Shown piece by piece: positions 27,713-39,627 of a stretch of DNA of 64,000 nucleotides (the stretch's first letter is position 1; each line of letters begins with the position of its first letter). The notes beneath the pieces are model-generated. The model was not told where the DNA came from. It was given only the letters and a program-made list of their open reading frames with translations, and did not search any database. The stretch spans positions 4,526,001 through 4,590,000 of the forward strand of contig OZ234494.1 in NCBI GenBank assembly GCA_965153455.1, read 5' to 3'. A program made the translations under genes and the position numbers. Origin of the DNA: Sphagnum compactum. Taxonomy: Eukaryota.

Positions 27713-29567
27713 TCAGTAAATTTTCACTTACAACTAGTTCTGAAGTTCACACCACAAACATGATCATGAGGTTCCAAGCCATGATGACAGTAGATTCTTA
27801 TCCAGTGCACTTGTAGTTCTCAAGTTAAATAACAAGAAACATGAGTTTACAAACCATGAATGTGCCGTATGATCCTTCAATTCCCCTGTACAAATAGACG
27901 CCTGAGCTACATGAACTTCTTTAGATTCCCTTTGTCAATTAGAGATGATACTGGGGGACCACCACATAATTACATCTATGCGCAAAATGTATCAAATCTT
28001 AGAAAACCTGGAAGAAAACTTGAAGCACATTAACTTCCACAGAACCAAAAAATACATTCCATGATGCGCCAGACCATCATTTTTATATTAGAAATGTTCA
28101 AGTCTAGTGCATGTTATATTTTCTTAGATAAGTCTAGGGATTGATACTACAACTTTCTATGAGTACTGAACTTCATCGCTAGAAATATTTGGCTGTAGTA
28201 ATACAATCTGATGAGGTATTAGACTTTTGTATAGCATAAATGATCTTAAGTTATTTCGTTCTAAGTAATTTGGAGAGTGTCCACCCTGTGGATGTGTGTG
28301 TGTCTGTGTTTTTTCTTTCATTTTGGGTGTAATCCATGATTGAGACTAAAACTCCATATTTTAGATACAATTTAAGTGTAGGGTATTTAGCTTCCTGAGG
28401 TGGGGCCATTCTCAAAACAAGGGGCCTAAAATGCAGTAACTAAGTATGACCGCGCATTTTGGGAATGTCCCCTACATTCCCATGCACATTCCCCTGGGCT
28501 TTGCCCATTGTAAAGCCCCAAGCAAACATTATCATGAACCTAGACGTTTTGGGAATGTCCCCCATCCATGGGCTTTTTACCCACCATGATGCCCAAGGCA
28601 AACATTGTTGTGAACTTACACATATAGAGATCATGAGATGTAGGAGGGGTAGGATTCTTGTTCTTGCTCATCAAGAGTGCAAGGGATCTTAAATCTAAAA
28701 ATAGGCATAATTTTCCCTCTTAAGTTAATGAGAAGGCAATAGATCTCTCCCCCTCTCTAGAAGGGATATTCAGGGGTATAAGGGGCTAGGAATATGTTAA
28801 GTGAAGTATTATTTCCATAATTATCCTGCTTCCTTGTAGCATAATATTAACATATATTGCATATCAACAAGTTTCAATTGATGAGACATTTTTATAGCAG
28901 ATCTGGTACAGTCAGTGCACCCTTTTAAAAACATGTTTTTGAGTCCCAAATATAATAGTATGATTTTTCTCAAGTTACAATTAGCACCAGGAGATTGTCT
29001 TACTTGCAAGAAACTTCAAAATGAACTGAAAGATGGTAAGATTGAACATCACTTGAATCACACCTTCAATCGTATTCAAAGCAGCTGCCACTTGAGGCCA
29101 AATGGGACACTTGCTCAACCTGAACTAGCCTACCTACTCCAGATGAAGATGAAGTCCATGTGAGAAAGGAATCAGTGCTCAAACCCTGGCAATCCAATAA
29201 AGACTGCAATCCTCCTGCGGTTGCTGGAACAATACCATCCAAAGAATTTCTAAAGAGGATAATAAAGAAGCCTATATAGAAATGTGAAATTTGTAGGGCT
29301 CATGTGTACCGACCGGGTTCAAACCTTTGCAGACCAGTGAGCTCCGGCCAGAGTGAATTAACAGCCACCAATGCACCAGTTGGCCGTTCTGTCCACTGGA
29401 TGGGTTGCGTTTTTTCATTCGGCGCCAGATGGGGCTCATCACAGTCGATTTCTTTTTGCTGCTGACCACTGTACTTTTTCTTTTTTTTTCTTGCTCGTTT
29501 TTCCCTGGACCTGACCTCACACATAGCTACCCTGCTCACTTTTCTACCCTGTTCACTTTTCTACCTA

Positions 29568-29705
29568 GCTACTGTACTCACCACCTACCCTACTAACCTG
29601 GCTACTGTACTCACCACCTACCCTACTAACCTGGCTACTGTACTCATCACCTACCCTACTAACCTAGCTACTGTACTTACCACCTACCCTACTAACCTAG
29701 CTACC
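29568..29705 (+). repeat. 33-bp tandem repeat x4 (GCTACTGTACTCACCACCTACCCTACTAACCTG), with a further copy near 30021
   Basis: Units start at 29568, 29601, 29634 and 29667. Confidence 0.95.
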
Positions 29706-29740
29706 CAATTAATTATATACCCTACCCTAAAAACCTTACA

Positions 29741-30005
29741 CTAAATGCAATACCTGCATTTTGGGCCATTTCGAAAGTACGCATGTGGGGTTCAAGCTTT
29801 CTTTATACAAAGATCCTACCCTAAATGCAATACCTGCATTTTGGGCCATTTCGAAAGTACGCATGTGGGGTTCAAGCTTTCTTTATACAAAGATCCTACC
29901 CTAAATGCAATACCTGCATTTTGGGCCATTTCGAAAGTACGCATGTGGGCTTTTAGCATCTTTATATGAAGATCATACCCTAAATGCAATACTTGCATTT
30001 TGGGT
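29741..30005 (+). repeat. 80-bp tandem repeat x3.3 containing CCCTAAATGCAATACCTGCA
   Basis: Units at 29741 and 29821 are identical; 29901 is diverged; a partial copy follows. Related arrays occur at ~30530-30735, ~31655-31775 and ~33600-33760. Confidence 0.95.
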
Positions 30006-30529
30006 CACATCACTAACCAAGCTACTGTACTAACCACCTACCCTACTAACCTAGCTACTCTATTAATTACATACCCTACTAACTTAATCATTAGGTTTAG
30101 GGTTGAGACACATAAATTAATTGATAAGTTTTTCATAAATGTATAATAATTAATTTAAAGTAAGCTAAATTTGGGGGGAAATTTTTAGGGTTTACACACA
30201 TGTGAAGTAATACAATTGCATTTTATACCTTCTTCAAAAAGAATGGAAAAATTAGGTTGAAAAATCACACAAAGGTAAAAGACATATCTTCTTTTTTGGT
30301 TTTGTACGAAATTTATTTGATTATTTCTAAAGATTAACATATTTTATTTCAGTTAATAAATATTTATAATTAAAAACCTTTGAATTTTGGTTTCTAAATT
30401 TTTTCCTATGTTCTTTTAAATTTGGTTATTTTGCATTATATGATTTGTATAGTTCATATAGTTTTTTCGGTTTAGGGCATATATCACTAATTCTTCTTTT
30501 TGTTAGGGTTTGTATAGTTAGGGTTTATA

Positions 30530-32380
30530 TGAAGATCCCACCCTAAATGCAATACCTGCATTTTGGGGCACACAAAAAATACACATGTGGGGTTTAAGCA
30601 TCTTTATACGAAGATCCTACCCTAAATGCAATACCTGCAATTTGGGCCACTCTGAAAGGACGCATATAGGGTTTAAGCTTCTTTATATGAAGATCCTACC
30701 CTAAATGCAATACCTACATTTTGGGGCACACAAAAATAATTAATTAATTTCAAATTAATATGCTAACAAAGGTGTGTATAGAGGTTAGCGTTGTTGATTA
30801 AGAGTTCCATGATTCTTACTTCGTTTCATGAATTTGAAAAGAGGTTGTATTGTTTGTGGATCAAATAATACGATGACAATTGTGATCAAACTTATCTTGG
30901 TGTAGGAATTTTTCATGAAAAAGCTGAACTTACAATCTATAACATAGAATAATTATCTTAAATAGTGATTTCAATAACTTATTAAAACAAAAATATACTT
31001 CAGTTAATTAATCAAATATCAAATTAATCAATCTGATTTTTGATAATTATTCATCTAAATTATTTGATAATAAATTAATTATCAGAAATATTTTATATTA
31101 AATTGGGGGAAAATTTTTGGGTTTAGATATATGTGACACAATACAATCTCGTTCTATATTTTCTTCAAAGAGATTGAGAAAATGAGGTTGGAGTTATCAC
31201 ACAAATGTAATTAACAAACTTTATGTGAAAACCCAACCCTGAATGCGATACAAAGTTTGTTGAGATCAAAAATAAACCAGCAACTATTATGAGACCTATA
31301 TGCGAGTATTGCAAGAGATGCCAAAAAAAACCAGCAGCTATTATGGGAACTATATGCGGGTATTGCAACGAATGTTATAAAAACCCAACGAATACCATGG
31401 ATTGATATGCGGGTATTGCAACGAATGAAGAATGTCAGCAACTATTCAGTTGGTAAAAGTACGGGTGTAGGTATTGCAACGAAACCCCAAAATCCTAGTT
31501 GGTAAAGGTAAGTGTAAGTCTGAAGTTGAAATGAAAAAACAAACCTAAATGTAATACCCACGTTTGAAAAAACCCCATCTAAATGGTTTAGATACCCTTA
31601 AGTGAAGACCTAGCCCTAAACACAATATGCAGACGCAAAGTCACCTTCAAAAAACCCTACCCTAAATGCAATACCTGCATTTTGGGTCACAAGAAAAATA
31701 CGCATGTGGGGTTTAAGCCTCCTTTAAATGAAGATCCTACCCTAAATGCAATACCTGCATTTGGGGTCACTCTAAAATAATTAATTAACCCTTACTATTT
31801 TTCATGAATTTGAAAAGAGGTTCTATTATTTGTGGAACAAATAGTACAATGACAATTGTGATCAAGCTTATTGTGGTGTAAGAAATTTTCATGAAAAAAT
31901 TGAACTTGCAATTTATAACATGGAATAATTATCTTAAATAATGATTCCAATAACTTATTAAAACAAAAATATACTAAATTTAGTCAATCAAATATCAAAT
32001 TAATTAATCTGATTAAATCCAACTTTTTATTTTCAAGTAAATAAATTTAAGCCAAATGATTGGTTAATTATTTTAAATAAATAAATGATTATCTAATTCT
32101 TCATAATTAATCATCTAAATTATCTAAAATAATGGTCTATTAATTATTTAATTATATGACAAATTTTATTGATAATTCATTAATTATCATAAATATTTTA
32201 TATTAAATTGGGGGGAAAATTTTAGGGTTTAGACATATGTGAAACAATACAATTGCATTCTATATCTTCCTGAAAGAGATTGGGAAAATTAGGTTGGAGT
32301 TATCACACAAAGGTAAAAAACAAACCTTATGTGAAAACCCAACCCTAAATGCAATACAAAGTTTGTGAAAATCAAAAAAT
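30530..32380 (+). repeat. Internal direct duplication of a ~700-bp block (~30530-31275 vs ~31655-32380)
   Basis: Shared collinear segments TTCATGAATTTGAAAAGAGGTT, AATAATTATCTTAAATA, AAATTGGGGGA, GGTTGGAGTTATCACACAAA, TATGTGAAAACCCAACCCT. Confidence 0.85.
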
Positions 32381-32748
32381 AAAAAGTTCAAGCTTAAATA
32401 TTTTTCAAAGATGTTCATATTTTTTTTCCCCTTTTAAAGTTGTATATTCATACTAAAAACGTAAATATAAAGTCTTTAATTTAATGAGATTTTAAATTGT
32501 GTTAAAAAAAATCAAAACACATAATAGTGGTTTAAATATTGGTCCAAATATATTGTTATTTATAAAACCTAATACATAAATAATGATATTATGGAATTAT
32601 ACTGTTGATCCATTTTCAATACATATAATATTTTAGGGGTTTAGGGTTTAGGGTTGGGTTTTCACAGGTTAAGGTTGGGTAAACCCTGAAACCCTAAACC
32701 CTACAAATATTAATAGTAAATAAAATAAATCTACAGTGCATTATAGAG

Positions 32749-33468
32749 GGTTTAGGTTTAAGGTTTAGGGTTTAGGTTTAAGTTTAGGGTTTAGATTTAG
32801 GGTTTAAGGTTAAGGTTTAGGTTTAAATTTAGGGTTTAGGTTTAAGTTTAGGGTTTAGATTTAAGGTTTAGGGTTTAGGTTTAAGTTTAGGGTTTAGGGT
32901 TAGATTTAGGGTTTAAGGGTTTAGGGTATAAGTTAGGGTTTAGATTTAGGGTTTAAGGTTAAGGTTTAGGTTTAGATTTAGGGTTTAAGGTTAAGGTTTA
33001 GGTTTAGGGTTTAGGGTTTAGGTTTAGATTTAGGGTTTACGGTTTAGGGGTTTAGGGTTTAAGTTAGGGTTTAGATTTAGGGTTTAAGTTAGGGTTTAGA
33101 TTTAGGGTTTAAGGTTTAGGTTTAGGTTTAAGGTTTAGGGTTTAGGTTTAGATTTAGGGTTTAGGTTTAAGGTTTAGGGTTTAAGTTAGGGTTTAGATTT
33201 AGGGTTTATGGTTAAGGTTTAAGTTTAAGTTTAGGGTTTAGGTTTAGATTTAGATTTAGGTTTTAGGGTTTAGGCGTTTAGGGTTTAAGTTAGGGTTTAG
33301 ATTTAGGGTTTAAGGTTAAGGTTTAGGTTTAAGTTTAGGGTTTAGGTTTAGATTTAGGGTTTAGGTTTAAGGTTTAGGGTTTAGGTTTAGATTTAGGGTT
33401 TAGGTTTAAGGTTTAGGGTTTAAGTTAGGGTTTAGATTTAGGGTTTAAGGTTTAGGGTTTAGGTTTAG
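32749..33468 (+). repeat. Interstitial degenerate telomeric array (TTTAGGG mixed with TTTAGG, TTTAAG, TTTAGA, TTAAGG)
   Basis: About 720 bp of uninterrupted telomere-like units. A shorter cluster with an orientation switch lies at ~32632-32703. Confidence 0.95.
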
Positions 33469-34159
33469 GATACTGATAATGATGCTGCAAAAGCTGCTGT
33501 TGTGACTACAAAGAAAAGTGATTGGTCTTAAATGCGCACCTACCGGCTAAGTACGCACACTCCTCCCAGGTTCAAGTTGCGTACTTAGGCGGGAGGCTAT
33601 TGTACGCATGTGGGTTTAAGCATCTTTATACGAAAATCCTACCCTAAATGCAATACCTGCACTTTAGGTCACACAAAAAATACGCATGTGGGGTTTAAGC
33701 CTTTTTTAAATGAAGATCTTACCCTAAATGCAATACCTGCATTTAGGGTCACTCTAAAATAACTAGTTAATTTCAAAATCATATGCTAACAAAGGTGTGT
33801 ATGGAGGTTGGGGTTGTTGATTGGGAATCCATGATTGAAATTTAGAGTTTGGGAAACCCTAAATTAATTAACAGTTTTTTTACAAATTAATAGTAAATGA
33901 AATAAATCTATGGTGCATTATAGGGGGAATTTTATATGCAAAAAAATGCAATACATATTTGCAAGATCATACTGAAATAATACATAGGTGATTGGAGGAA
34001 AGCATGTGTGAAAACCCTAAACCCTAAATGCAATACTCGCATGTAATGTCATTTCAAAAATGGTCTGGGTACCAAAATTATGTCTTTTTATATACCTAAA
34101 TTAAATATTATTCTAAATTAATTTTATGACAAAATGTAAGTTTTACAATGAATGAAAAA

Positions 34160-34455
34160 ACCAGCAACTATTATGGGACCTATATGCAGGTATTGCAAGA
34201 GAACCCAAAAAAACCAGTCACTATTTTGGAGACTATATGCGGGTATTGTAAGAAATGAAGAATGTCAACGATTATTTGTGCCCTTTATGTGGGTATTGCA
34301 AGGAATGCAAAATGCCAGCGACTATTATGGGACTCATATGAGGGTATTGCAATGAATGAAAAAGGCCATTGCCTATTATGGGACTTATATGCGGGTATTG
34401 CATTTAATGCAAAATGTCTGTGGCTATTTTTTGAGGTTATATGCAGGTATTGCAT
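34160..34455 (+). repeat. ~50-53-bp tandem repeat x6 ending in TGC(A/G)GGTATTGCA; sister array at ~31278-31480
   Basis: Recurrent CCAGCAACTATTATGGGACCTATATGCAGGTATTGCAA-like units. Confidence 0.85.
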
Positions 34456-34867
34456 ATTAGAAAATGGTCTTATGGAGTTCATAATAGAAAATGATGTGGG
34501 TATTATATGTTTAAAATGTGTGGATTATTTTAAAAGTCTTCAAGTGATGTGAGTCCTATTAACTTAGATGTAAGTATTGTATAATGTTTATTTTGATCTT
34601 TGATTTGATTCTTACATCTCAAGTACAAACAAAATTATGACAAACAAGACATATAGGATTAACCAAATACACATCAAACAAGTGTGGATAGCCGATACTA
34701 TTATATTAATAAAAGATGTACAAAAATGGGTGCATGGAAAATTACTAGAGAACCCAATGAAGAAAAAACATTAGATCACTATAACATATCAAAGGATCAA
34801 AGTTCAAAATTGGGTAGTCCAAAAAGAAAAGGGCTACAAAACCTTACTAATTATATAAAATGAAACC

Positions 34868-36343
34868 CTAACCCATATCAGTATCTATAATCCCGTGTTT
34901 AGCTCGATATGCAGCTGCTGCATTTGCAGCCTTTGCTGCATGATGAGCAGTGTAAAGATGGCGGCGTTGCATTTCATTCTGAACTGCATTTGCAACAAAC
35001 TAGGCCTTTGTTTGGTCCTGAACCCTACAAACACCCAAAAATCACCAAATTAAACCGTAACACACCTTGGATCAAATACAATAAAAAAAGAATAAACATT
35101 GCTTAATATTTTTTCTTACCTTCCATGAATCATTCTAGATTCATGAAAATCCAAAACATCCGATAATTGTTTTGTCCGACTTGTTTTGCTGGACTCTCGC
35201 TCCCAATTCTTCACATCCCATGCCGTCTTTAATTGTCGTGCGTATGCACAACGAGTGGATCAGATCATCCCCTATAAGTCATCATCCTTCTCCATTCGTA
35301 CAATTGCATCTCGCGCCACACTGCCCACGCCCCAGGCATTAAGGCCCAACACCTTCAACAATTGCTCTGAAGCAAATCTGACCAAAGGTGGTTTTGGGAG
35401 TGGTGGACACTGTTTTGCAAGAGTCATCAAATGATTCCATTCGCGTTCTGCTTTGGCACGAGCACGACTAGTAGCTTTCTGATCATTTCGCCTCTGCACA
35501 GCCATCGCATCTCCCAAAATGCGAGCGTTCATCTTGCCATGGTCTTGATGCCGAGGACCTCCTGCAGCAGTTGAAGGCCTCCCAGGTTTTGACTTTTCTG
35601 CCACCAAGCCGTGCACCTCCTTCAAATGTTGCGTCAATAGCCATTTCGCACAATATGCGACAATGCAATTGTGGACTTTGCACTTCCATTTGGACCCGAC
35701 CTTTGTCTATTCCTTATCCTTCCGAGCCAGCTTAGGTGGACAAATAACTGCAGGTGGTTGAGAAGCTTGCTCAGTTTCCAGTTCCGGACCTAAACCCAAA
35801 AACAGAAAGTTCAATAAACAAAATGCAGGTATTGCAAAATATCAAATCACAAAATTACATATTACTTCTATAAACATGAACTGTTCTAAGATATTGCAGT
35901 AAAAAAATTTAGACAAAAAAATTCCTGCACCATCCAACAAATGGAAGGTGCAGGTGCAATTAAATTTTGAGAAATTTGTACAATTTTATTAATTTGTAAT
36001 TAATCTAATGTCCTATCTTCTAATGTCCACGAATTCTAAAGTAATCTATACCAATGCTACCCTTTTGTTTCAATTGTGATACAGCACAATTATGCTCACC
36101 AGTTTCCCGATCTAATGCAGCAATATTATCCTTAGCAACAATTTGCTGGGCACCTCCCGCATCTGATGTGGTGACAATTTCCTGGGCACCTCCCACATCT
36201 GATGTGGTGACAATTTCCTGGGCACCTCCCGCATTTGATGTGATGACAATTTTTTGGGCACCTCCCGCATCAGATGTGGTGACAATTTCCTGGGCACCTC
36301 CCGCATCTGCTGCATCGCTTTTCTTTACTCTCCTCCTACCCAT
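34868..36343 (-). pseudogene. Spliced pseudogene of an uncharacterised ~372-aa C2H2 zinc-finger / AT-hook-like protein
   Basis: Exons 36343-36052, 35789-35120 and 35024-34868 are joined by GT-AG introns with matching phases (1119 nt, no frameshift). The protein contains CKVHNC-x12-HLKEVH followed by KSKPGRP. In-frame stops at 35709-35707 (TAG), 35274-35272 (TAG), 35262-35260 (TGA) and 35002-35000 (TAG). Confidence 0.75.
36140..36307 (-). repeat. 36-bp coding tandem repeat x4.7 (DAGGAQEIVTTS)
   Basis: Visible in the DNA (CTGGGCACCTCCCGCATCTGATGTGGTGACAATTTC) and in the 36020..36379 translation. Confidence 0.95.
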
Positions 36344-36469
36344 TATAACCTCCAACCCTAAACCAGTAGTTATTACCAATTGTTAATTCTAATGAACAAA
36401 AGCACAAACAACAACAAAGCAAAAAAAAAAATCGCCACTAGCAGCAAGAAAAAAAAAAAAAAAAACATT

Positions 36470-37340
36470 GCAACTTTGAGCTTTAGAAAATTGCAACTTC
36501 GAGCTCGGAGCTTTAAACGTTGCAGCTTTGAGCTTTGAGGGTTTAGGGTTTAAACCCTAAACCCTAAACCTGCAGCGCTGCAGCTCTGAGCTCCACGAGC
36601 TGGGAGCAGCGCAGCAGCTTCGAGCTCCACGAGCTTGGAGCAGCTCCGAGCTCTGAGCTCCACGAGCTTGGAGCTCCAGCGCAACTCCGACCTCCACGAG
36701 CTTGGAGCTCCAGCGCAGCTCCGACCTCCACGAGCTTGGAGCTCCAGCGCAGCTCCGACCTCCACGAGCTTGGAGCTTGGAGCTGCAGCTCCCAGCTTGT
36801 GGAGCTCGGAGCTGCAGCTCCGATCTCCAAGCTCCACGAGCTTGGAGCTGCAGAGCTTGGAGCTTAGAGCTTGAAGCTGCACCTCCCAGCTCGTGGAGCT
36901 CGGAGCTGCAACTCCGATCTCCAAGCTCCACAAGATCGGAGCTGCGCTGCTCCGAGCTCTGAGCTCCACGAGCTTGGAGCTCCAGCGCAGCTCCGAGCTC
37001 CACGAGCTTGGAGCTTGGAGCTTGGAGCTGCAGCTCCCAGCTCGTGGAGCTCGTAGCTGCGCTGCTCCGAGCTCCGAGCTCCACGAGCTTGGAGCTTGGA
37101 GCTTGGAGCTGCAGCTCTCAGCTCGTGGAGCTCGGAGCTGCAGCTCCGATCTCCAAGCTCCACGAGCTTGGAGCTTTAGCGCAGCTCCAAGCTCCACGAG
37201 CTTGGAGCTCCAGCGCAGCTCCGAGCTCCACATGCTTGGAGCTGTGCTGCTCCGAGCTCCGAGCTACACGAACTTGGAGCTCCAGCGCAGCTCCGAGCTC
37301 CAAGCTCCACGAGCTTGGAGCTGCAGCTCCGAGCTCCACG
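36470..37340. repeat. GC-rich AGCT/GAGCTC-based complex satellite
   Basis: Shuffled units GAGCTCCACGAGCTTG, GAGCTCCAGCGCAGCTCC, GAGCTGCAGCTCC. The scarcity of stop codons explains the many overlapping ORFs on both strands. Confidence 0.95.
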
Positions 37341-39627
37341 ATGCAAAATAAAAAAGAAGAAGGGAAAAAAGCTTACCTTGAAGCTCTGGCGCTCCCGCTT
37401 CAGGAAAAAAGCTCCAGCTCCGGCGCTCCCGCTCTGGCTGTGGTGCTCCCGGTCTGGCTTCGTCGCGTCCGATTTACCTATGGTGCTCCCGCGATGGTGC
37501 TCCCGTTCTCGGGAGAGGGGAGGTAGGAGGGGGTAGGTAGGTAGGAGGGGGGAGGTAGGAGGGGGTAGGTAGGAGGTAGGAGGGGGGAGGAAGGTAGGTA
37601 GGGGAGAAATGTTTTGGGGCAGAGTAGAGGTAGGAGAAAAAAAAATATTTGGGCAGTCCGGATGTGGTTTTGGTTCATCCCCAAAACGGGTTGAACGGGC
37701 TCATCCTCAACTGGTGCATTGGTGGCTGCTAATTCACTCAAGCCGTGAGCTCTCGCTTTGTAACTGGATACACTCACTTTGCATCCAAAGACAAGCAACA
37801 AGTTGTCATTTGGACAAGTTCATATTCACCTCGATTTTGGTGCTTTTTTGGAAGGGTGGGTTTGTGCTTAACCAACGTGCCTTTATCTTCCCCGCTTTGC
37901 AGGCTCATGTCACCACTGTGATCGCATTCATAGATCCCATATAACCAAACTATTCATTCCATAGGCTTTAAACCCAAAATTTGACTTTGTTTGCCTTGCA
38001 ATCACATTCACACCAAGCGAGTATCCAAAGAATTTGAAATCTTGTAAGCCCCTTATTATTATTTTTGCAAAGGGAAAAATTAGTTCCAATGGCGAGAATT
38101 TCGAGGAACTACTATAGGGGTGGTTTTTCATAATATTCACAAGCTTCTTATTGGTTTTGCATAATCCTTCATGCAGTCATCCCTAGACAATTCCAGAGAC
38201 ATTTTCAAATATAACTACCTCACTTCATTCCTAATAACTACCTCTTATTCTTATAGCTATCTCACTCATTTTTTTAATAACTCTTTTATCCTCATAAATA
38301 TTTCACCCCTTTTTGTACCCACCAACATAGATGTGAAAAGGCAAATGAACATGGGCCTTTTCATGTCCATGATATTTATATTAATTGAGATTCTATTTGA
38401 CAAATTGACATAAATAATGATGAATTATTGATAATCATATGGGAGTATAATAAAAAGAAAAATCGTCACTAGTAGTGCGTAGCAACACGAAGCTTAGGTT
38501 AATTTATATATTTCATTATTTAATGACATTGCGTCTAAAGCACATAATCCAAATGGAAAATATTTGCATGTCAACTATATTCATCACAAATTTAACGTGT
38601 GATGAATTAATAATTAATAATTAATCATCTAAAATTCATTTATTTATAAACTTGTACATTTTGCATAGGAATATTATGCATTGAAAACACATATGACACA
38701 CAGATACATGTGTTGTTGAATGATTAATGAATCTATAATTGAACGAATGTTACATGAATTTCACTTTTTTTTATAAATTTGTGTGGCTAAATAATAATTT
38801 CACAATTTTTATTTTTCTATTATTAAATATTAATAGGATGTAAGGAAAATAAAAAATAACATTTGATGTACCTTGTCAAAACTACATGCAAATAAGTTGC
38901 AACAAGGAAACCTATCATAAAAATTGTAGAGCATTTAATGTTTTTGCTTAAATGATCCAAGATTACATAGTTTTTCACTAATGTGTATTCATTTTCAAAC
39001 TTTTTAGTTGTAAAAATAGGTTTCAAGTAGGTTTTTTAATTCAATTAACTTTTGATATCAACTTCAATTGAATTTAATGTGCCATGAATATATAAATATA
39101 TATTGTGATGACTTTTTGGAATATATGATGATCTTAATATTTTAACTTAGTACATATTAATGACCCAAGTGTGAACTAATTACCCAACCAATTTTTCCTA
39201 CAAAATCTATTTTTGGTAATTTAATTGAATTTCCAATGACCAAAACTATTCAAAATTCAATATTAAGACTACGTAGGTCTTAGGTCTAAAATTTGCCAAA
39301 TTGCTTTCATTAAACCCTACTCACTAAACTTTCAAATAATACCAAGAAGGCACCCAAATTCACTTATAATTTTTTGTTTTGGTTTAAATAAATTTTCCAT
39401 GGAATTTTTTTCAATATCCAATAAATTTTCCATTGAAGCTTAAAACATTATGAAACCAATTGGTGCACCCCTACCCATTGAAAGCTTTCCAAAGGCACCA
39501 AAAGCATGGCAAAATATTTACCACATATGCAAAATGGTCATCATAAAATTAATAGAACATGTCGCTAACAAGATCACACGATCACAACAGCACAACATTT
39601 TATGTTTTGATGTTTCCCCCATTATAC

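Follow-up and report, generated by a model that had tools for sequence, protein, structure and literature searches.

A high-copy family of short-TIR DNA transposons from Sphagnum-like genomes carries a zinc-finger gene and a recurring 13-nt motif

In maize, the MuDR/Mu system comprises the mudrA transposase, the mudrB helper, a 9-bp target-site duplication (TSD) and non-autonomous relatives that are mobilized in trans; the terminal inverted repeats (TIRs) of Mu are about 200 bp. We know of no non-autonomous Mu elements with a conserved, selected helper gene, and to our knowledge MURB is restricted to Zea and unrelated to the moss zinc-finger protein described here. VANDAL elements encode the transposase VANA and are not known to have long TIRs. 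TnpA of En/Spm (CACTA) is a small DNA-binding protein, and the subterminal 12-bp repeats of that element are direct and inverted. Two-gene PIF/Harbinger elements need both a transposase and a Myb-like DNA-binding protein for transposition. The targets of VANC 'often form tandem repeats' (PMC5735166); they lie in non-coding regions and differ from one related element to another.

The family described here was found in a 64-kb stretch of DNA (the window). Like VANDAL21 (Hiun) of Arabidopsis, it is a class II element with a 9-bp TSD that encodes a non-transposase protein. It is also similar in having a short motif arrayed in non-coding parts, with array sizes that differ between copies. On the other hand, the TIRs of the moss family are clear and 37 nt long, none of the sampled copies has a transposase, and the protein is related in sequence to no Pfam family.

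Like MuDR/Mu, the moss family is bounded by TIRs and has a 9-bp TSD, but its TIRs are only 37 nt and its transposase-less copies carry a conserved, selected gene. It resembles En/Spm in encoding a small predicted DNA-binding protein and in having internal motifs in both orientations. It differs from En/Spm in lacking CACTA termini and a 3-bp TSD, and its motif arrays are internal or at the far end only, not symmetrical at both ends. As in Pack-MULEs, the element is transposase-less, MULE-like and carries a non-transposase coding sequence; in contrast to these, the moss family has a complete gene with a promoter region, three exons and GT-AG introns, which all sampled copies possess and which purifying selection maintains. 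PIF/Harbinger elements likewise encode a DNA-binding protein apart from the transposase, but their TWA 3-bp TSD, Myb/SANT domain and transposase are all missing here.

Window positions 29346 to 37744 are one cut-and-paste TIR DNA transposon insertion of 8,399 bp in a Sphagnum-like genome. The inverted repeat that a preliminary description had noted at both ends was confirmed in the window sequence as arms of 38 nt (29345-29382 and 37708-37745) with 92% complementarity, and the TIRs of the element agreed at 34 of 37 nt. The 32-nt core occurred at just two sites in the 64-kb window, and 100 shuffles gave no match. The termini, first placed at 29339 and 37752, had to be moved to 29346 and 37744. 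A TSD, previously thought not to be visible, was present, its 9-bp copies GTGAGCTCC and GTGAGCTCT being identical at 8 of 9 positions.

All 23 termini examined in other copies began with G[G/C]C at the same base. Their flanks were mutually unrelated, except those of L048 and L055, which are one locus. Locus L030 contained an end of the gene-distal type seen in the window (89.6% identity over 134 nt, same start base), at the same distance from the gene and in the same order.

An empty orthologous site had been proposed as a check. In three of the three other organisms examined, contigs bridged the flanks without the element and with one 9-mer. Position 29336 was joined to 37745 with no letters between in two of them (X11 record 2, 1,105 nt; X12 record 10, 577 nt). 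The third (X9 record 16, 1,260 nt) contained 28547-29345 followed by 37781-38218, with 23 nt between. Each side of these contigs was well over 31 nt. Integration occurred through a staggered cut that duplicated 9 bp, and the empty site was retained in related organisms. These empty sites and the 23 sharp termini bore out the earlier suggestion of a new transposon family, of which literature text searches found no description.

Table 1. Features of the element and its target site (window positions)
Feature	Position	Strand	Evidence or remark
Left TSD copy, 9 bp, GTGAGCTCC	29337..29345	.	abuts terminus set by other copies; empty-site contigs
Left (gene-distal) TIR, 37 nt, begins GGCC	29346..29382	+	inverted repeat; shared termini; L030 end
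Left T-tract, then CTACC-rich tract including 33-bp array	29463..29725	+	sequence read; TRF rows 29527-29725; CCTACC/CTACCC clustering
33-bp tandem array	29563-29704		tandem-repeat search
80-bp array, 3.4 copies, one TGCAATACCTGCA per unit between CCCTAAA and TTTTGGG	29737..30004	+	tandem repeats; motif search
Further 79-80-bp arrays	30524-30736 and 33603-33759		unit copies also near 31651-31777
Internal duplication, ~0.6 kb	30815..32378 (30815-31272 vs 31791-32378)	+	self-comparison
54-bp motif array between duplication copies	31267-31427	+	tandem repeats
Degenerate telomere-like (GGTTTA/GGGTTTA) array	32749..33469	+	tandem repeats; expanded in window copy
51-52-bp array, 6 units, each with TGCAATACCYGCA in gene sense, immediately downstream of gene	34146..34454	-	tandem repeats; motif search
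Three-exon gene (36343-36052, 35789-35120, 35024-34868), GT-AG introns	34868..36343	-	gene modelling; S. balticum model; RNA reads
Premature stops in window gene	35709-35707, 35274-35272, 35262-35260, 35002-35000	-	
Single TGCAATACCTGCA in intron 1	35824..35836	-	27 exact copies at same relative position in 80 loci
Palindromic telobox cluster (~36535-36570), then GAGCTC-type satellite (36577-37341)	36535..37341	.	between gene 5' region and right subterminal tract
Right GGTAGG-rich tract (CCTACC on minus), A-tract, conserved ~125-nt gene-proximal end region	37512..37707	-	tandem repeats; sequence; clustering
Right (gene-proximal) TIR, 37 nt, begins GGCT on minus strand	37708..37744	-	inverted repeat; shared termini
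Right TSD copy, 9 bp, GTGAGCTCT	37745..37753	.	sequence; shared termini; empty-site contigs

The spliced gene for a C2H2/AT-hook-like protein was recovered as previously described, with its exon-intron structure; the window copy itself is a pseudogene with four premature stops (Table 1). Where the window gene has its first three stops, intact homologues have W, Q and R. PolyA RNA of the same species label covered the exons, with first mates on the + strand and a depth of 0.15 in the intron-1 bin. Three of three RNA reads had G at 35262, giving CGA in place of the TGA of the window.

The predicted protein consists of an NLS-like stretch, a 12-aa-repeat part, a C2H2 finger, an AT-hook-like stretch (KPGRP) and a helical part. 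The finger, CX4CX12HX4H (read as CKVHNC..12..HLKEVH), satisfies the C2H2 spacing CX2-4CX12HX3-5H, and C45, H63 and H68 were invariant in 22 sequences. Named homologues were solely from Sphagnum balticum, in which the gene model P0280 (347 aa) has three parts as in the window gene. Searches of Pfam, PDB and Atlas matched the protein to no family. Pfam zf-C2H2 appeared below threshold, in the distant homologue P0269 only (E = 0.012), and no Myb/SANT domain was found with Pfam. The predicted structure showed one zinc finger, long helices and disorder at low confidence (pLDDT 47), and no nuclease or RNase-H-like fold was recognizable in this model.

Among 595 candidate stretches of metagenome DNA, 441 encoded a relative, giving a minimum of 441 loci, and the family contained 664 protein clusters. 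Summed contig depth, as a rough guide only, was 10 to 1,000 times higher over the element than over the flanks in all three DNA runs. This is a high-copy family, with hundreds of copies in Sphagnum-like genomes. The best 80 of the at least 441 matches, retrieved with the zinc-finger protein, were compared as loci; this sample is therefore biased toward gene-bearing, better-preserved copies.

In each sampled copy there is a single gene, which encodes a small nuclear-type C2H2 plus AT-hook-like protein, and a transposase is lacking. The association of the end motif with this gene, another check proposed earlier, was found in 21 loci, where the gene-proximal TIR lay 0.8-3 kb upstream of exon 2 and the adjoining end region was 76-95% identical over 72-127 nt. 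The sole locus without a TIR, L032 (identical to L044), had an exon 2-3 fragment with stops. No host progenitor of the gene was seen.

At least one premature stop was present in 73 of the 80 copies, and on the tree the 176 stop occurrences required 155 or more independent changes. The stops of the window gene were absent from its nearest relatives. G>A or C>T made up 52% of 4,493 differences from the consensus. Single copies decay after insertion by such changes. On the other hand, the median Ka/Ks of 3,154 pairs was 0.38, and pooled pN/pS fell with rising Ks from 1.24 in close pairs through 0.72, 0.52 and 0.44 to 0.36 in distant pairs. This fall indicated that proliferating lineages retain an intact gene; lineages that leave descendants keep it under purifying selection.

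The arrays of one DNA motif in the preliminary description were borne out by the 13-nt TGCAATACCYGCA. At one mismatch or less it had 23 matches in the 64-kb window against 0.19 expected, all inside 29746-35836, with none outside the element. The 80 loci (356 kb) contained 125 exact copies, of which 27 lay upstream of the exon 2 match, at 0 to 500 bp from it. The other 98 lay 1 to 4.5 kb downstream of the start of that match (87 sense, 11 antisense), and none was found elsewhere. The 87 sense copies are at the position equivalent to the window array 34146-34454, a region with matches in 35-37 of the 80 loci. The 80-bp and 52-bp units have this motif as their sole common sequence, in opposite orientations. 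Its copies are restricted to the element and occupy conserved sites there: intron 1, the array immediately downstream of the gene and the far-end 80-bp arrays.

In 72 aligned sequences (71 loci and the window), the intron-1 motif columns were at least 90% identical, but the motif does not stand out there, since intron 1 was conserved as strongly as the exons. In array units anchored on another box, the motif was just moderately more conserved than its surroundings.

The tandem-repeat search recovered all the other arrays reported earlier: those of 33, 80 and ~52 bp, the ~720-bp telomere-like array and the GAGCTC satellite. The T/A tracts and the CTACC-rich tracts inward of each end were also readable. 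CCTACC clustered close to both ends, on the + strand at the left and on the - strand at the right (11 in 37446-37745), and this CCTACC-rich tract, rather than the motif arrays, is the symmetrical subterminal feature. The bins 37500-37700 had matches in 22-26 of the 80 loci. The duplication, earlier put at 700 bp, was present over ~0.6 kb and in two pieces (30815-31038 vs 31791-32014, 88%; 31100-31272 vs 32206-32378, 87%); L030 and L010 each have just one, collinear copy of the duplicated unit. Teloboxes numbered 53 in the element against 7 in the remaining 55.6 kb of the window.

That the element lacks a transposase, as first noted, held for 66 of 66 ORFs of at least 50 aa; neither a hAT domain nor the DDE_Tnp_4 transposase of PIF/Harbinger was found among them. 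No transposase was found in the 44 ORFs (44/44) of the rest of the window, in 60 of 152 ORFs of 17 long loci (the rest being satellite or zinc-finger ORFs) or in 51 of 63 ORFs of L034. The shorter loci gave none, and no hAT domain, in 132 of 167 ORFs, 9 low-complexity and 26 mostly overlapping ones being left out. The MURA-type domains (Pfam MULE, DBD_Tnp_Mut, SWIM) were absent from the element, the rest of the window and the scanned ORFs of the 80 loci. Longer copies encoding a transposase did not turn up, and the element may or may not be a deletion derivative, the other reading first offered. RepHel ORFs were confined to L006, one of the eight loci with at least 3 kb upstream of the TIR, and lay outside the TIR there.

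A 9-bp TSD (range 8-11) is the mark of Mutator elements in plants. CACTA and PIF/Harbinger produce 3 bp, hAT 8 bp and Merlin 8-9 bp, while Helitrons produce none and insert at AT or TT. As read from the empty sites, the moss TSD was exactly 9 bp, in one complete copy. CACTA was rejected by the GGC termini and a TSD of 9 bp rather than 3, and hAT by an empty-site gap of the element plus 9 bp, not 8, and the lack of a hAT domain. PIF/Harbinger was rejected by flanks that are not TWA, the 9-bp TSD and the lack of its transposase and Myb-like domains; Helitron/Helentron was rejected by the presence of a 9-bp TSD. Classical MULEs have TIRs of about 100-200 bp or more, and the TIR here is 37 nt; this does not exclude membership, because short-TIR and non-TIR MULEs exist. 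Neither a MURA-type transposase nor an autonomous copy came to light, so the superfamily was read only from the TSD length of the one complete copy.

We interpreted the element, at a probability of about 0.6 for the joint reading, as a MULE insertion mobilized in trans, in a family that would depend on its own DNA-binding factor to proliferate. The 9-bp TSD would place the family in the Mutator superfamily. Cutting and joining would be performed by a MURA-type transposase supplied in trans from an unsampled autonomous relative, which may recognize the TIR and the CCTACC-rich subterminal tracts. Judging from sequence, the zinc-finger protein may bind its own family's TGCAATACCYGCA arrays and act there as a helper specific to that family, its likeliest role being to keep the element transcribed or unsilenced as VANC does. 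Alternatively, it might assist the assembly of the ends, like TnpA.

It was also considered that two related elements or end fragments lie face to face, or that an inverted repeat surrounds a repeat-rich region by chance. In its favor, the similarity of the two ends ceases beyond 37 nt, and L076, the only other locus with two ends, has both of the gene-proximal type facing each other, without matching 9-mers. We found this hardly credible and rejected it, because exactly 29346-37744 together with one 9-mer (8,399 bp plus 9 bp) is absent as a block from three independent contigs; the L030 far end and the shuffles also argue against it. A non-autonomous member of another TIR superfamily (Merlin, an atypical hAT or a P-like element), with the zinc-finger gene accessory or captured, is unlikely. 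The short TIR beginning with GGC, the lack of a transposase and the assignment from a single TSD would suit it, but the 9-bp gap in three empty sites contradicts groups with 3-bp, 8-bp or no TSD. Moreover, CACTA termini and TWA flanks are both lacking, and Merlin, as far as we know, does not occur in land plants.

Tandem arrays often grow in the interior of transposable elements, and those found here might be such satellites with no binding role, the protein serving otherwise, perhaps as a chromatin or transcription factor of a general kind at the promoter or the ends. Copies differ in the GAGCTC satellite that separates the right end from the gene (BLAST matches in just 3-6 of 80 loci), the telomere-like region is a copy-specific expansion (~1.4 kb in the window vs ~170 bp in L030), and the modest conservation of the motif relative to its surroundings fits as well. 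Against this, two unrelated repeat units share one 13-mer, which is present in either orientation, stands once in intron 1 and occurs nowhere else in the window or the 356 kb of loci; we regard the satellite explanation as possible but doubtful. Quite improbable is that the zinc-finger-only element is a complete propagating unit with no dedicated autonomous partner, its protein directing transposition by recruiting an unlinked or host-domesticated transposase to the ends or by an unrecognized catalysis of its own. For this speaks that the gene is present in every sampled copy, and stays intact and selected in proliferating lineages, and that none of the copies has a transposase. The window, L030, L010 and L034 are collinear from the gene to the far end with no differing deletion breakpoints, and in 21 loci the short distance from the gene-proximal TIR to exon 2 leaves no room for a second gene. 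A fused longer form was not among the best 150 profile-search matches (all 275 aa or less), and a search among longer proteins gave 2 matches only. On the other hand, the low-confidence model has no recognizable catalytic fold, the protein matches no known family in the three databases, and a 9-bp TSD is the typical product of a DDE Mutator transposase. At least 3 kb downstream of the gene was available in just about six copies. Autonomous partners are typically rare, and those without the zinc-finger gene would escape a protein-seeded search.

One difficulty for the favored reading, a MULE with its own helper, is that proliferation is limited to gene-intact lineages, which would be puzzling if the protein acts in trans on all copies. 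The pattern would fit better if few copies are active at once, or if the protein prefers to act in cis.

The inverted repeat that the preliminary description had reported at the two ends of the element was present. Its arms (29345-29382 and 37708-37745) were 38 nt long and 92% complementary, and the 32-nt core was absent from the rest of the window; none of 100 shuffles produced a match to it. Metagenome contigs were scanned with the protein as seed, which gave 80 loci for comparison, drawn from at least 441 metagenome loci of the family, each encoding a relative. The gene-proximal end was found in 21 of these loci, 0.8-3 kb upstream of exon 2, and one locus, L030, carried the gene-distal end.

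When the 23 termini were aligned, all started with G[G/C]C at the identical base. Their flanks were mutually unrelated, except for those of L048 and L055, which represent one locus. The common first base and the unrelated flanks placed the bounds of the window element at 29346-37744 (8,399 bp), with terminal inverted repeats (TIRs) of 37 nt (34/37).

The nine bases just outside the ends were GTGAGCTCC (29337-29345) and GTGAGCTCT (37745-37753). A target-site duplication (TSD), not visible according to the preliminary description, therefore does flank the element; it was overlooked partly because GAGCTC is palindromic. The target GTGAGCTCC includes GAGCTC, which is also the core of the element's own satellite. 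This coincidence is probably due to chance. The flanks of the other termini had no common target sequence.

Empty sites were sought in Logan contigs of three other organisms (DNA sequencing runs X9, X11 and X12), compared with the window over 28300-38800. A contig of 1,105 nt (X11 record 2) joined 28629-29336 to 37745-38120 without a gap, and another of 577 nt (X12 record 10) likewise joined 29151-29336 to 37745-38128. The third, of 1,260 nt (X9 record 16), ran from 28547-29345 to 37781-38218 with 23 nt in between. The site was thus element-free, with a single 9-mer, in all three organisms, the filled state being known from the window itself. These bridging contigs are direct evidence that the element arrived by transposition and generated a 9-bp TSD. 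They also removed the earlier alternative of two elements facing each other. The window element is a bona fide TIR transposon insertion.

Locus L076 was considered as a second complete copy and rejected, as both of its ends were of the gene-proximal type and their 9-mers differed. The two ends (L076:82-4502) face each other 4.4 kb apart with a single gene copy between them, and represent either two abutting elements or one rearranged element. The window held the only copy with both ends, in a sample biased by the protein-seeded discovery. The 20-mer core of the TIR had no match in viral contigs. Three matches in prokaryote MAG contigs covered the 20-mer alone and were dismissed as chance (about one expected in 596 Gb).

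The summed contig depth of 38128-38478, a segment lying some 350 bp beyond the right side of the insertion, was about 100 times that of the adjoining unique flank in each of the three DNA runs. This segment is probably another, unrelated high-copy repeat. The neighboring host genes were represented by an ARD-family exon at about 25.8 kb and succinyl-CoA-ligase-like exons at 49-52 kb.

Features inside the window element (window positions)
Feature	Position	Strand	Details
Zinc-finger gene, three exons	36343-36052, 35789-35120, 35024-34868	minus	GT-AG introns of 262 and 95 nt; 372 codons
33-bp units	29563-29704		Tandem Repeats Finder
80-bp units	29737-30004, 30524-30736, 33603-33759		Tandem Repeats Finder
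51-54-bp units	31267-31427, 34146-34454		Tandem Repeats Finder
Degenerate telomere-like array	32749-33469		Tandem Repeats Finder
GAGCTC-type satellite	36577-37341		Tandem Repeats Finder
Internal duplication, piece 1	30815-31038 vs 31791-32014		88%
Internal duplication, piece 2	31100-31272 vs 32206-32378		87%

Every tandem array that had been listed from the sequence was recovered, and the internal duplication was present as two pieces. Clusters of CCTACC lay on the plus strand inward of the left end and on the minus strand inward of the right end. The window, L030, L010 and L034 were collinear, in the order gene, 52-bp array, ~740-bp unit and 80-bp arrays, followed by the far end, which was reached only in the window and L030. 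The telomere-like array spanned about 1.4 kb in the window versus about 170 bp in L030, a copy-specific expansion. Only 3-6 of the 80 loci shared the GAGCTC satellite, which separates the gene from the right end.

Telobox-like sequences (AAACCCTA/TAGGGTTT) numbered 53 in the element, where many were scattered over 30100-34010, versus 7 in the remaining 55.6 kb. A palindromic cluster of them (36535-36570) lay about 200 bp upstream of the ATG of the gene, and CCCTAAA adjoined TGCAATACCYGCA in every 80-bp unit. These sequences may contribute to an element promoter or to chromatin targeting. An Rfam search of 28000-39000 gave no match.

The 'one DNA motif' of the preliminary description proved to be the 13-nt TGCAATACCYGCA, which had 23 matches in the window at up to one mismatch, all within 29746-35836, against 0.19 expected. 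Exact copies numbered 125 in the 80 loci (356,052 nt), distributed over 49 loci. Twenty-seven preceded the exon 2 match by no more than 500 bp (intron 1). Downstream of the start of that match, 87 were found at 1-2 kb in sense orientation, and the other 11, which were antisense, lay farther downstream. None was found elsewhere in the 356,052 nt. At up to two mismatches, 343 copies were found, and only one of the 81 sequences searched had none. Apart from TGCAATACCYGCA, which was oppositely oriented in the two, the 80-bp units had nothing in common with the 52-bp units.

In a profile anchored on 133 units, the motif block held about 0.6-1.1 bits per position and the remainder less, a moderate signal blurred by indels. 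Intron 1 was conserved throughout at 80-99%, on a par with the exons, and the motif was hence not distinguishable there. The distribution of TGCAATACCYGCA is what a binding site would be expected to show, and the motif is a candidate for one.

The gene was modelled by tblastn with P0280, a 347-aa gene model of Sphagnum balticum, and by inspection of splice sites. The protein starts with a basic N-terminus (MGRRRVKK), followed by 12-aa repeats encoded by a 36-bp array (36138-36309), one CX4CX12HX4H finger, a KPGRP AT-hook-like stretch and a helical C-terminal part. Four premature stops interrupted the gene in the window (35709-35707, 35274-35272, 35262-35260 and 35002-35000). Intact homologues have W, Q and R at the first three positions, and at the fourth the S. 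balticum model has E at the aligned site. The order finger, GRP, QDHxKMNA and LGIxxWGVG was common to distant homologues (P0263, P0269, P0270 and about 12 relatives among them).

The protein had no family match in Pfam. A PDB profile search gave a single match, which was rejected (E = 0.57), and an ESM Atlas search gave no lead (top feature score 0.88, all TM values <=0.24). AlphaFold2 prediction of exon 2 from 22 sequences produced a beta-beta-alpha finger followed by long helices; the scores were poor (pLDDT 47, pTM 0.22), and the model was not good enough for a fold search. Homologues that had a name were all 'unnamed protein product [Sphagnum balticum]', and gene callers label the products of the family only as hypothetical or unnamed proteins. 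A search for fused or longer proteins gave only one 281-aa gene model and one chimeric ORF. The profile search yielded 394 family representatives, and none of the best 150 exceeded 275 aa.

The family comprised 664 protein clusters at E <=0.01. In X9, X11 and X12, the summed contig depth of the element exceeded that of the unique flanks by a factor of 10-1,000, a ratio that is not a copy number. Exon 2 contained at least one premature stop in 73 of the 80 loci. On a tree for which stop codons had been masked, no fewer than 155 independent changes were needed to account for the 176 stop occurrences. The stops of the window were absent from its closest relatives, L048/L055 (96.7% nucleotide identity) and L001. 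Of the 4,493 differences from the consensus, 2,357 were G>A or C>T. We interpreted this as the pattern expected of methylated-cytosine deamination.

The median Ka/Ks was 0.38 (3,154 pairs, stops masked). With rising Ks, the pooled pN/pS fell from 1.24 (Ks <0.06, 39 pairs; somewhat inflated through binning by Ks) through 0.72, 0.52 and 0.44 to 0.36 (Ks >0.3, 1,051 pairs). These results show that inserted copies each decay neutrally, with purifying selection along the lineages from which new copies arose. This indicated that the gene matters for the proliferation of the element. The window element is a member of a large family; in its copies, motif arrays specific to the element accompany an orphan zinc-finger gene that is under selection.

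RNA runs containing parts of the window were labelled as moss or plant metagenomes. Reads from polyA RNA under the same species label covered 34618-35670 and 36022-36372. Their first mates were on the plus strand, as a standard stranded library would give for a minus-strand RNA. The depth in the intron 1 bin (35671-36021) was 0.15. Only 11 of the 168 polyA reads placed were at least 99% identical to the window, indicating that the expressed copies were mostly others. At position 35262, three of three reads had G, giving CGA where the window has TGA. In the left-end region (29353-30405), polyA reads had first mates on the minus strand at a depth of 2-5, and their loose ends entered foreign flanks at 29351. 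This suggests read-through transcription of other copies from adjacent genes.

As in the preliminary description, no transposase was recognized. DDE, HUH, tyrosine-recombinase and reverse-transcriptase domains were absent from all 66 element ORFs of at least 50 aa and all 44 other window ORFs of at least 90 aa. They were likewise absent from the 60 ORFs searched among 152 of 17 long loci (satellite and zinc-finger ORFs left out), from 51 among 63 in the 9.4 kb upstream in L034, where host genes lie, and from 132 among 167 of at least 120 aa in the shorter loci (9 removed by a low-complexity filter and another 26, mostly overlapping, left out).

The sole exception was L006, one of eight loci with at least 3 kb of upstream sequence, in which Helitron RepHel ORFs lay just outside the TIR. 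These ORFs (L006:475-3683, plus strand; Helitron_like_N, E = 1.9e-07; Pif1 2B/helicase, E = 1.2e-18) were outside the element end at L006:4047 and probably represent a neighboring Helitron or Helentron. A Helitron link was rejected as a coincidental neighborhood. Helentrons are reported from Sphagnum magellanicum in PMC11417382.

One locus, L032:5735-7378 (the same as L044:9608-11251), held an 867-bp fragment of exons 2-3 of the zinc-finger gene with stops, but no TIRs or arrays. It sits between two 387-bp direct repeats, about 90% identical, and may have been captured within another repeat-bounded element. An uninterrupted ORF for a 350-aa class-I fructose-bisphosphate aldolase was also present (L044:904-1953, plus strand, E = 1.7e-165). 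An intronless form would be unusual for a plant nuclear gene.

In plants, Mutator elements characteristically generate a 9-bp TSD. On this basis we infer that the element is a member of the Mutator superfamily, the defining transposase not having been found in it. An autonomous relative outside the sample would mobilize it in trans through the TIR and the CCTACC-rich subterminal tracts, and the zinc-finger protein would bind TGCAATACCYGCA as a family-specific helper. The most likely role of this helper would be anti-silencing or activation in the manner of VANC; alternatively, it would be a TnpA-like end-assembly factor. To our knowledge, transposon-encoded, sequence-specific helpers that act on arrays of their own motif are known experimentally mainly from flowering plants. 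The layout of this bryophyte family is comparable to those of VANC in VANDAL and TnpA in En/Spm, but its protein is an apparently unrelated orphan. VANC targets are often arranged as tandem repeats, according to PMC5735166.

It is also conceivable, but quite improbable, that the family has no conventional autonomous partner, and that an element of ~4-8 kb with only the orphan zinc-finger/AT-hook protein is a self-sufficient propagating unit. The protein would then bring an unlinked, possibly host-domesticated, Mutator-type transposase to the element ends, or be an unrecognized kind of transposition protein. Such a single-gene unit, if true, would explain the gene-intact, selected sources of hundreds of transposase-less copies. 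Text searches on Sphagnum transposons (subscription papers, Repbase, Dfam and Sphagnum TE libraries aside) gave no description of such an element.

The family offers hundreds of copies, clean ends, a candidate binding motif, transcription evidence and a population-genetic signature of the importance of the gene. Annotation of Sphagnum genomes gains a family definition with termini, TSD and gene model. It can be tested in peat moss whether a transposon stays active through a private DNA-binding factor, and whether selection on such a factor can maintain a transposase-less element.
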